A DNA stretch of 64,000 nucleotides from the IMG/VR virus record IMGVR_UViG_3300022074_000002, one strand, 5' to 3'. The translations under genes were made by a program, and so were the position numbers. Below are positions 24,336 through 45,940 of the stretch, piece by piece. Positions within the stretch are counted from its first letter, which is position 1. The number at the start of each line of letters is the position of its first letter. The notes beneath the pieces are model-generated. The model was given only the letters and a program-made list of their open reading frames with translations. It searched no databases and was not told the DNA's origin. This DNA is from a virus.

Positions 24336-24517
24336 TGTTGGACGCAACGTTGGGAGTGACTGAATAAACTTACTGGCAACCGCTAGTTAAGGTGATGAGA
24401 CACAGGTGGTGCTGCTACGAAAGTAGAACCGACTCAACCAGTCGGGTCTCAGGCAAGAAGGTTTTTACTCTGTAGTAATGCCCCTTCTTTGTTGGTATAC
24501 AGGATTCCAACCTCCCT
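24336..24517 (+). ncRNA. Structured RNA, probably the manA RNA motif
   Basis: Stems GGGAG/CTCCC, GAGAC/GTCTC, CTAC-GAAA-GTAG, CCGACT/AGTCGG, AAGAAGG/CCTTCTT, TTACT/AGTAA, GTTGG/CCAAC; family name is from recall, not from a search. Confidence 0.7.
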
Positions 24518-24528
24518 CTTTATTTTTT

Positions 24529-42147: not shown

Positions 42148-42214
42148 AAATAGAACAGTGAGGATTTCCTCACCATTAGGACGGACTCGAAACAATCGTA
42201 ACCCTGACTACAAA

Positions 42215-42334
42215 CTGCTCCCAACCAAGACCTACGTAGGCAGTATAATACTTCGTCTTTCATATCCAGTAGTGAGGGATTGCTGGAAATAAATATCGCA
42301 TCTTCCCTGATGCCCTATTTAAAACGTCTTACTA
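42215..42334 (+). ncRNA. psbA 5' leader structure, probably the PhotoRC-II RNA motif
   Basis: ACTGC/GCAGT, TCCAGTAGT/ATTGCTGGA and GAGGG/CCCT pairings directly upstream of psbA; family name from recall. Confidence 0.6.
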
Positions 42335-45222: not shown

Positions 45223-45251
45223 TTGACATTTCTAAATAGTTATGTTAGTAT
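45223..45251 (+). promoter_or_regulatory. Sigma70-type promoter with embedded CTAAATA, driving the riboswitch locus
   Basis: TTGACA-17 nt-TAGTAT. Confidence 0.65.
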
Positions 45252-45258
45252 TCTAACA

Positions 45259-45491
45259 CGTTCATCCAAATGCATAGTCTAGCACTACTAGTACTTCTAT
45301 TCGCTGAACATGATTCTTCTCATTGGGAAATGTCATGTGACGAATGGAACCAAGCAAGGATTGAGATACTCAGCGATGAGAATCACATCCAAGATGCTAA
45401 GGAGTATCTTATTGACTACTTCTACACCAAAGTACCAGATAGAAATTGCAAGGCATGGTCAATTGGACGCAAGTAAGTCAGACACGGAACG
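45259..45491 (+). ncRNA. Glutamine-type riboswitch aptamer 1, split by an ORF in its P2 loop
   Basis: CGTTCA-TCCAA[45270-45462]TTGGA-CGCAAG...GAC...GGAACG; same architecture as the intact copy that follows. Confidence 0.7.
45270..45476 (+). CDS. 68-aa protein encoded within the riboswitch loop
   Basis: MHSLALLVLLFAEH...IGRK; hydrophobic N-terminus, two Cys; stop falls in the 3' half of the aptamer. Confidence 0.6.
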   Translation: MHSLALLVLLFAEHDSSHWEMSCDEWNQARIEILSDENHIQDAKEYLIDYFYTKVPDRNCKAWSIGRK

Positions 45492-45495
45492 GATT

Positions 45496-45537
45496 CGTTC
45501 ATCTCTTACGAGACGCAAATGTTCGACTGAAGGAACG
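45496..45537 (+). ncRNA. Glutamine-type riboswitch aptamer 2 (Downstream-peptide/glnA class)
   Basis: CGTTCA-TCTC-TTAC-GAGA-CGCAAATGTTCGACTGAAGGAACG; P1 CGTTC/GAACG; precedes a YRG peptide. Confidence 0.8.
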
Positions 45538-45570
45538 GGGCTACAATCCCTACTACTTTGGAGAAAACAA

Positions 45571-45702
45571 ATGACTAAAGTCACTTACCGTGGCGTTGAG
45601 TACAACGCTGAAGAGTACAACGCTAAAGTGCTTGCAGAAGCATCAAAGCGTAATAGACACGAACTAATGTATCGTGGTTTAAAAGTAACAAGCAAGGCAT
45701 AA
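45571..45702 (+). CDS. DUF4278-like downstream peptide (43 aa)
   Basis: MTKVTYRGVEY...ELMYRGLKV; GGAG RBS. Confidence 0.8.
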   Translation: MTKVTYRGVEYNAEEYNAKVLAEASKRNRHELMYRGLKVTSKA

Positions 45703-45728
45703 CCTTGTATTTAAGATGAGGTAATACA

Positions 45729-45902
45729 ATGTTAAGGATCAAGGTTGATTGGACACGTCCAACTCTTCCAGAATTTGATCCTGTCAAGCACGATCCCGAA
45801 AGAACATTTGCATTCTTGACTTATCGTGGTGTTAACTACGCTAAATGGGTTTATTTAAAAGTCCAATTTAACGCAGTCAAAGACTGGAAGATTACATCTT
45901 AA
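45729..45902 (+). CDS. Second YRG-motif peptide (57 aa), absent from the ORF track
   Basis: MLRIKVDW...FLTYRGVNYAKW; GAGG RBS. Confidence 0.65.
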   Translation: MLRIKVDWTRPTLPEFDPVKHDPERTFAFLTYRGVNYAKWVYLKVQFNAVKDWKITS

Positions 45903-45904
45903 TC

Positions 45905-45940
45905 AGAGGGGTAGACACCCCTCTTTTTTTATGGTATGAT
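45905..45940 (+). terminator. Terminator with -35-like box in the loop and downstream -10
   Basis: AGAGGGG-TAGACA-CCCCTCT-TTTTTT then TG-G-TATGAT at 17-nt spacing. Confidence 0.75.

Follow-up and report, generated by a model that had tools for sequence, protein, structure and literature searches.

Riboswitches are usually viewed as compact, non-coding elements of 5'-UTRs and as rare in phages. Group I and group II introns carry ORFs in their peripheral loops, and leader ORFs are known as well, such as mgtL in the mgtA leader. Binding of glutamine by the type 1 glutamine riboswitch raises the synthesis of the DUF4278-bearing IF17, by a mode of action that is unsettled (PMC6212724). Tandem copies have been known since 2010, and tandem glnA RNAs with downstream peptides have been described, with no nested ORF (PMC2864571); a 2017 riboswitch survey reported two glutamine aptamers in cyanophage genomes (PMC5473149). 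Phages and insertions are not mentioned by Klähn et al. 2018, and a nested layout is not described in the phage papers with a reference to glutamine riboswitches. We found no published description of a gene nested in a glutamine aptamer; the literature coverage was incomplete, and a P2 insertion may be mentioned elsewhere.

Here we analyze a leader in a stretch of 64,000 nucleotides (the window) from IMG/VR virus record IMGVR_UViG_3300022074_000002, a T4-like cyanomyovirus in which the leader is surrounded by cyanophage genes. The leader contains two glutamine-type aptamer units in tandem (Table 1), the first of which holds a complete protein gene in its P2 loop. With the glnA motif (RF01739), represented by the leader of Synechocystis gifB, the locus shares the P1 helix CGUUC/GAACG, the A followed by the P2 hairpin and the ACG(C/G)AA junction, whereas the GAAGGAACG 3' end of that motif is found in unit 2 only, unit 1 being without RAA at this place. 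As in gifB, the element forms the 5' leader of a gene for a DUF4278/IF17-like protein. Unlike RF01739, one P2 loop consists of ~193 nt with a complete protein gene instead of ~4 nt, the model's P3 hairpin is missing and unlike cores form an ordered pair; furthermore, in contrast to the gifB type, the aptamer appears to begin at the 5' end of the transcript and is found in phages. The Downstream-peptide motif of marine picocyanobacteria (RF01704) is similar in its CGUUCA..CGCA..GGAACGG elements and in the YRG/DUF4278 peptides encoded downstream, and the core of unit 1 resembles the RF01704 consensus in that no GAA precedes GGAACG; however, the pseudoknotted 3' hairpin that presents GGAACG in RF01704 is absent here, and RF01704 as described has no nested gene. 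As in intron-loop ORFs, the coding sequence occupies a loop of a structured RNA, the helices of which have to form around it, and as in leader ORFs of the mgtL type, translation would compete with alternative RNA folds. Unlike group I and group II introns, the gene is hosted by a metabolite aptamer of just ~45 nt rather than by a ribozyme; unlike mgtL-type leader ORFs, the product is a conserved protein under purifying selection rather than a short sensing peptide; and, in contrast to both, aptamer nucleotides make up the start and stop codons. A protein gene built into the aptamer is a real, conserved and apparently undescribed variant of the glutamine riboswitch.

Table 1. Features of the tandem-aptamer leader and its small operon; positions are those of the window.
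Feature	Position	Strand	Description
Promoter, sigma-70-type	45223..45251	+	TTGACA 45223-45228, 17-nt spacer, TG-extended TAGTAT 45246-45251; 10/12 matches
Unit 1, 5' half	45259..45269	+	CGTTCA 45259-45264 (P1 5' strand CGUUC and unpaired A), P2 5' strand TCCAA 45265-45269
Nested gene in the P2 loop of unit 1	45270..45476	+	ATG 45270-45272, 68 codons, TAA 45474-45476; phrog_6471
Unit 1, 3' half	45463..45491	+	TTGGA 45463-45467, CGCAAG 45468-45473, GGAACG (P1 3' strand) 45486-45491; type-1 core
Unit 1, junction	within 45463..45491	+	CGCAAG-UAAGUCAGACAC, then GGAACG
Unit 1, 3' half as DNA	45463-45491	+	TTGGA-CGCAAG-TAAGTCAGACAC-GGAACG
Linker GATT between the units	45492..45495	+	GAACG-GAUU-CGUUC, a possible local 5-bp hairpin, present in the MFE fold
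Unit 2, compact glutamine aptamer	45496..45537	+	P1 CGUUC/GAACG, P2 UCUC-UUAC-GAGA, junction CGCAAA..CUGAA; type-2 core
Unit 2, elements		+	CGTTCA 45496-45501, TCTC/TTAC/GAGA 45502-45513, CGCAAA 45514-45519, GGAACG 45532-45537
Unit 2 as DNA	45496-45537	+	CGTTCA-TCTC-TTAC-GAGA-CGCAAA-TGTTCGACTGAA-GGAACG
Post-P1 hairpin (GGG..CCC) and ribosome-binding region of the next gene	45538..45570	+	GGAG 45560-45563
YRG peptide, DUF4278-like (IF17-like), 43 codons	45571..45702	+	PF14105 25.2 bits; phrog_5049 6.5e-21
Second small ORF, 57 codons, YRGVNY motif	45729..45902	+	phrog_6192
Intrinsic terminator, end of the small operon	45905..45931	+	8-bp stem, then T run

Exactly two copies of the 3'-half pattern GACGSAA-N(2-25)-GGAACG are present in the 64 kb of the window, compared to 0.00 expected from 100 shuffles. 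The sequence-only reading of this stretch had proposed a two-unit leader of the glutamine type with a unit 1 that is intact except for its gene-holding loop, and this description stands: the coordinates that it assigned to both units and to the nested ORF all agree with the sequence. The compact aptamer that it recognized at the second site is matched by RF01739 end to end (model positions 1-53 of 53, 33.8 bits, E 1.6e-5), 1.2 bits below the cut-off of 35. Against the Glutamine-II model RF01704, the same unit reaches 23.3 bits, with non-canonical pairs in the 3' hairpin of the cmscan alignment, and its relatives 27.6-30.0 bits, the cut-off being 33. Unit 2 sequences with short loops in related loci score 32.0-42.8 bits with RF01739, 9 of 14 at or above the cut-off of 35; type-2 cores identical to those that enclose ORFs also carry loops of 3-5 nt and yield up to 42.8 bits with this model. 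In the same window, cmscan also detected a manA RNA and a PhotoRC-II RNA. The peptide encoded downstream of unit 2 contains two YRG motifs and falls just short of the Pfam cut-off for PF14105 (E 2.1e-5; cut-off 25.3 bits); its homologues in S-SSM5 and P-TIM40 are named 'DUF4278 domain-containing protein' at NCBI. In the hairpin that follows P1, the pairs found among the relatives, as read by eye, are GGA/UCC, GGC/GCC, GGG/CCC and GGU/ACC.

Native unit 1 produced no match to RF01739 in cmscan even at E-values up to 10 because its 193-nt loop (45270-45462) is longer than the model allows. Related loci supply natural counterparts without this obstacle. The unit 1 of L052 (1143-1189), which is free of the gene and has the same core type, is matched by RF01739 with 34.2 bits, in line with the view of unit 1 as an aptamer; in both L052 and L080, this unit combines a 4-nt loop with a core of the window's type (CGCAAGTAAGCC..CTCGGAACG), and the gene that in the window occupies unit 1 is found in unit 2 instead.

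We collected 84 loci (L001-L084), 80 from a protein-guided scan of IMG/VR and 4 from reference phages. These contain 157 aptamer units, 108 of which enclose an ORF of one of two families, denoted A (the family of the nested ORF in the window) and B, and 49 of which have loops of 1-5 nt. Wherever the surrounding sequence is complete, the family-A ORF is located between CGTTCATCC..ATG and ..GGACGCAAG-TAA..GGAACG; in the loci at contig ends, just the remaining half of the aptamer is visible. The CGTTCATCC flank is invariant in all 68 unique family-A units.

The nested ORF belongs to T4-like gene cluster 429, with members in P-RSM4, P-HM1, P-SSM3 and P-SSM4: its residues 1-64 align with positions 1-65 of the 66 in the profile of phrog_6471 ('T4-like GC 429') with an E-value of 1.3e-27. 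The PHROGs entry carries no function, and no Pfam family was found for the protein; the AlphaFold2 model is small and helical (pLDDT 88) and has no match in the PDB at E-values up to 0.001, and the search of the Atlas returned solely unnamed viral clusters of equal length. Among 63 unique coding sequences of family A, dN/dS is about 0.15 (median 0.16, summed ratio 0.14) at a dS of 0.86, and the column entropies by codon position are 0.43, 0.21 and 0.76. The ORF is thus conserved, and the account that the sequence-only reading gave of its boundaries is borne out, namely, a start at the first base of the loop, no room for a Shine-Dalgarno sequence and a stop inside the 3' half of the aptamer. 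The entire 5' UTR of the nested gene is the 5' half of unit 1, the 11 nt upstream of the ATG being aptamer nucleotides (the 5' strand of P1, the A and the 5' strand of P2). At the other end, the last codons, ATT GGA CGC AAG, and the stop TAA likewise consist of aptamer nucleotides. None of the 63 sequences departs from GGA CGC AAG in the final three codons, whereas the other invariant residues of family A are encoded by two to four codons each (three or four in the case of R30 and L34, for example); frozen codons at the end against free codon use elsewhere mark an RNA element that overlies the coding sequence. The GGA CGC AAG TAA terminus is present in nearly every copy of family A, and three diverged copies have another stop or are one codon position off. 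Judging by this pattern of substitutions, the insert in unit 1 is a real protein-coding gene.

In many relatives, there is a second gene, inside unit 2: phrog_504 ('GC 430/541'; family B), with 53-65 codons and a dN/dS of 0.31. It ends in another frame, as ..G GAC GCA AAC GAN TAA or ..GAC GCA AAA GCC GAC TGA, such that the stop codon is located one base before GGAACG. The hhalign alignment of families A and B runs Cys to Cys, but at a probability of 10% and E 0.003, which falls short of establishing paralogy.

The helix that has to close around the gene can be assessed by comparing its two strands. The invariant flanks served as anchors for 58 unique stems that enclose an ORF; in these, P2 positions 1-5 are paired in 97.9%, with exchanges at position 4 (A-U 32, C-G 15, U-A 6, G-C 1) and at position 5 (A-U 46, U-A 8, C-G 1). 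None of 2000 partner shuffles equalled the observed pairing, and sliding of the partners destroys it, in agreement with the TCCAA/TTGGA stem drawn in the sequence-only reading. This covariation spans 140-200 nt across the enclosed gene. Its strength comes from pooling the two gene families: the fourth P2 pair varies little in family A alone (A-U 60, G-C 4, other 4), and P1 and the first three P2 pairs (U-A, C-G, C-G) are invariant in 68 of 68 and therefore carry no covariation information. On this comparative evidence, the P2 helix closing around the nested gene is real, and we are highly confident of the anatomy as a whole, that is, a real split aptamer combined with a real nested gene.

The failure of cmscan to detect native unit 1 is what one would see if the resemblance to an aptamer were due to chance or if unit 1 were a decaying relic of a duplicated aptamer broken by gene insertion. 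This explanation appears extremely improbable, given that the halves are invariant in 68 of 68 unique units while the enclosed gene has a dS of 0.86, close to saturation of its synonymous sites, that the changes in P2 are compensatory and that 0.00 matches are expected by chance. A different question is whether unit 1 is a sensor. Immediately before GGAACG, unit 1 has ..ACAC in the window, without the RAA of unit 2 and of the RF01739 consensus; therefore, it may not bind glutamine alone. This departure from the consensus, together with the use of the 5' half as the whole 5' UTR of the nested gene, fits a scenario in which unit 1 no longer senses glutamine and has another role, in 5'-end stability, as a processing site or as a signal for translation start or re-start, with unit 2 being the sole riboswitch. 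We consider this improbable because selection on the aptamer fold itself is evident from the covariation in P2, from the freezing of synonymous sites and from the persistence of unit 1 where the gene has been lost, because a gene-free unit 1 obtains its 34.2 bits with a glutamine model, and because the Glutamine-II consensus, as seen in cmscan, likewise is without GAA before GGAACG.

The two units are not two equal copies. In 174 unique adjacent pairs, the first unit has ACTC, TCGC, ACAC and similar sequences before GGAACG, never NRAA, whereas the second always has TGAA, TAAA or CGAA; the pair is thus strictly ordered, with the core that lacks RAA first and the NRAA core second. The linker is 3-6 nt long in all 174 pairs (3 nt in 106, 4 nt in 55, 5 nt in 11 and 6 nt in 2), and in every locus, each 5' half is followed by its own 3' half before the next unit begins. 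The fixed length of the linker and the fixed order of the unlike cores suggest that the pair works as one device. The constant pairing, the short linker and the strict order also would be compatible with an interlocked, strand-swapped double sensor, in which four helices would meet at one junction and one of the two P2 arms would contain the gene. In such a structure, the CGUUC of unit 1 would form an outer helix with the GAACG of unit 2, beside the RAA motif, and the GAACG of unit 1 would form an inner hairpin with the CGUUC of unit 2, closed by the linker; this inner hairpin is present in the MFE fold. All four P1 strands are invariant, so that covariation is unable to separate the two topologies, but the halves of each unit lie side by side in every locus, each of two isolated units, unit 2 and the L052 unit 1 without a gene, gives an end-to-end match to RF01739 that includes P1, and single glutamine aptamers are functional in cyanobacteria (PMC6212724). 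Accordingly, we view the strand-swapped arrangement as unlikely.

The content of the P2 loops varies widely. In L272, S-SM1 and ACG-2014d, unit 1 consists of UCCC-UUCG-GGGA and the type-1 core, and family B is inside unit 2; L091, L139, L169, L183, L232 and S-RIM2 have a structured insert of 30-45 nt, 45 nt long in L091 and others, without an ORF in unit 1; in L214, the nested ORF is shortened to 8 codons; and L141, L229 and Syn19 contain other families of nested ORFs. The combinations of loops in the first and second unit are long-short (41), long-long (25), short-long (5) and m-L (2), and the family-A gene is found in either unit. These natural variants of both units imply that the aptamer is a conserved scaffold and the P2 loop its variable part, very often a gene. 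They also lend themselves to an explanation without any coupling, under which the P2 loop is simply permissive, the small genes are placed there for genome economy and expressed constitutively from the same promoter, and the riboswitch controls the downstream peptide only, variable loops and intron-loop ORFs being the parallels. Loop content is indeed diverse, from 3-5 nt through structured inserts of 26-63 nt and the 8-codon remnant to at least four ORF families of 35-70 codons; every combination of loops is seen, and one gene can reside in unit 1 or, as in L052, in unit 2.

The position of the genes with respect to the aptamer is, by comparison, narrowly fixed. The ATG follows CGTTCA at a distance of 4-7 nt in 56 of the 58 unique stems; in the window it adjoins the 5' strand of P2, and in many relatives it lies inside this strand, the contiguous P2 helix reaching the AUG in only 12 of 37 unique stems of family A and in 16 of 21 of family B. 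The stop codon falls inside the junction, 1 nt before GGAACG in family B and mostly 5-9 nt before it in family A, and is 1-9 nt from the 3' strand of P1 in all but one copy of family A. Neither this fixed register of the start nor a stop inside the junction, reached in two frames by the two families, is expected of a neutral passenger, and a translating ribosome unfolds the aptamer anyway, making some coupling physically unavoidable. Thus, a permissive loop without coupling seems an unlikely account of the nested genes.

Of 55 unique upstream regions, 34 contain a promoter-like site whose -10 element ends 7-9 nt ahead of CGTTCA, compared to 0.019 expected per region; the promoter of L272 is identical to that of the window. 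Since the position of the promoter is conserved, the aptamer is placed at the 5' end of the RNA, and in the window, the predicted transcript start (~45257-45259) coincides with the first nucleotides of the aptamer.

Taken together, these observations suggest a split-aptamer mechanism. The operon leader would open, at or within a few bases of its 5' end, with the ordered pair of aptamers of the glutamine-riboswitch type, and unit 1 would be a split aptamer that forms P1 and P2 from 11 nt at the 5' end and 29 nt located ~193 nt downstream. Given the known footprints of ribosomes, a 30S subunit on the nested ATG would cover the whole 5' half, and a terminating ribosome would cover the 3' strand of P2, the junction and the 3' strand of P1; by this geometry, translation and the folded aptamer would exclude each other, and the folded aptamer would bury the initiation site of the nested gene. 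High glutamine would stabilize the aptamers, shutting the nested gene and turning on the downstream DUF4278/IF17-like peptide, as in the gifB riboswitch, whereas at low glutamine the leader would be open and the nested gene translated, such that one sensor would have opposite outputs for the inner and the downstream genes. We put the probability of this reading as a whole, an ordered pair of glutamine aptamers with a gene-holding split unit 1 and reciprocal outputs, at roughly 55%. For mutual exclusion in this particular regulatory direction, the chances appear evenly divided, the direction for the nested gene being purely what we infer. In the sequence-only reading, ligand binding and translation of the nested ORF already competed; the geometry, which is what speaks to this point, favors exclusion, and the further proposal of that reading, a gating of the downstream peptides, is conjectural. 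That reading also recognized the tandem units but missed phrog_504 in unit 2 of relatives, the placement of a gene in either unit and the ordered pairing of unlike cores.

The MFE fold of 45256-45585 counts against this mechanism without being decisive: it has the hairpin between the units, its 5' UCCAAA pairs with the SD region downstream, and the long-range aptamer is not formed, in a model that does not include tertiary and ligand energies. Further points against are the small share of family-A stems in which P2 extends to the AUG, the lack of an Rfam match for native unit 1 and the score of unit 2 just below the cut-off. A competition for the SD region, with the 5' strand of P2 pairing with the SD flank, was considered and rejected: there is no covariation, the flank being UUUGGAG here and UUUAGGAG in relatives with the same UCCAAA.

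Cultured model phages that carry the layout are P-SSM4, P-HM1/2, P-RSM4, Syn19, S-SM1 and S-RIM2. By tblastn, family A was found in 21 phage records, which are Prochlorococcus myoviruses and single-cell viral contigs, and a 53-residue query of family B in 293 phage records, mostly Synechococcus myoviruses; in the four of these 293 that we inspected, the family-B gene is within unit 2. The genomes of potential hosts were scanned with exact CGTTCAYC/GACGCAA/GGAACG patterns. In 185,579 species genomes, the strict pattern yielded 11 matches. Four are real, and each of them comes from a single-cell or binned assembly, where it lies on a contig that is short or phage-like; one of the four is syntenic with P-HM2. 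The other seven, with P2 stems of 3-8 bp and ORFs that never exceed 3 codons, were discarded as GC-rich noise. Among the 401 genomes searched from the Prochlorococcus family, the matches are on two phage-like contigs only, the reversed-pattern control giving 4 matches. For the patterns searched, no cellular example was found in either set. In scans for loops of intermediate size, the matches of 40-70 nt are mostly tandem short units spanned by the pattern, and many of those of 70-100 nt come from unrelated GC-rich phages.

Contigs from an rRNA-depleted marine metatranscriptome that are identical to the window cover 45258-45340 and 45311-45720, a weak hint of expression, and in run X10 coverage is confined to 45257-45880, with contig ends at 45257/45258; these are assembled contigs, in which neither an end nor a gap in coverage is evidence of a transcript end. 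One contig carries a loose end that stems from a related variant. The contigs are compatible with the predicted transcript but do not establish where it ends or from which strand it comes.

Aptamers whose loops carry very long insertions escape covariance-model searches, and the layout described here occurs in hundreds of phage records yet is invisible to Rfam scans. We tentatively suggest, at somewhat less than even odds, that it represents a widespread two-output riboswitch of cyanomyoviruses, the ligand-dependent fold of which would shut the enclosed genes by burying their start sites, be reset by their translation and open the gene for the IF17-like peptide. The locus offers a directly testable case of translation against ligand-dependent RNA folding. 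The arrangement may be a compact way to express two sets of genes reciprocally with nitrogen status during infection, and the IF17-like peptide would link this phage control to the regulation of host glutamine synthetase. If the two-output reading is true, these would be the first protein genes built into a metabolite aptamer, and phage riboswitches would be greatly undercounted.

The nested ORF of unit 1, the split glutamine-type aptamer, contains two hairpins (see table) in which pairing is preserved across synonymous changes in alignment A1. Columns 119 and 126 form 45 C-G, 9 U-A and 8 G-C pairs; columns 149 and 170, which correspond to the third positions of K44 and F51, form 41 G-C and 19 A-U pairs, and synonymous variation is nearly absent in codons 45-50. 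These hairpins may contribute to the compaction of the 193-nt loop. Because the structure was derived from A1, the same alignment that shows the pairing, we treat them as a lead only. Inspection by eye of the window and of the related phage loci L001-L084 revealed the pair exchanges GGA/UCC, GGC/GCC, GGG/CCC and GGU/ACC in another hairpin, located directly 3' of unit 2, the compact aptamer; this hairpin appears to covary, and may be the counterpart of the "short helix attached to P1" that melts upon ligand binding (PMC6212724).

In some relatives, unit 2 is separated from the ribosome-binding site by an additional conserved element with the layout ACGGAUCC-(stem)-GNRA-like loop-(stem)-GAGAAGGU(U/G)AA. 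This element, which is absent from the window, might serve as another platform or represent a degenerate third unit.

Additional nested ORF families (68, 62, 66 and 35 codons) occupy the same P2 position in L229, L141 and L274 and share with families A (phrog_6471) and B (phrog_504) a hydrophobic N-terminus and two cysteines spaced approximately 35-40 residues from each other. The nested ORFs of L229 and L141 stop just before or within the P2 3' strand, not in the junction. The manA and PhotoRC-II RNAs of the window are ordinary cyanophage cis-regulatory RNAs.

Coordinates of the RNA elements and nested ORFs
Feature	Sequence	Position	Remarks
Nested-ORF hairpin	window	45368-45387	A1 columns 113-132
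Nested-ORF hairpin	window	45403-45423	A1 columns 148-171
Hairpin 3' of unit 2	window	45538-45552	3-4 bp, directly 3' of GGAACG; also at homologous positions in L001-L084
Additional nested ORF	L229	7034-7413	
Additional nested ORF	L141	12095-12411	- strand
Additional nested ORF	L274	149-387	
manA RNA	window	24336-24521	RF01745, 181 bits
PhotoRC-II RNA	window	42199-42300	RF01717, 63.5 bits
Extra element	L009, L013, L014, L016, L046		between unit 2 and SD
Extra element	L274 (Syn19)	570-610	
Extra element	L276 (S-SM1)	579-620	

Five loci (L254, L257, L262, L263 and L272) lie on cyanomyovirus contigs that are filed under prokaryote assemblies, namely, two Prochlorococcus single-cell genomes, a "Rhodospirillaceae" MAG, a "Euryarchaeota" MAG and one genome of the Prochlorococcus family. 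These contigs come from infected cells or from mis-binning, and their presence in prokaryote assemblies could mislead counts of host distribution.
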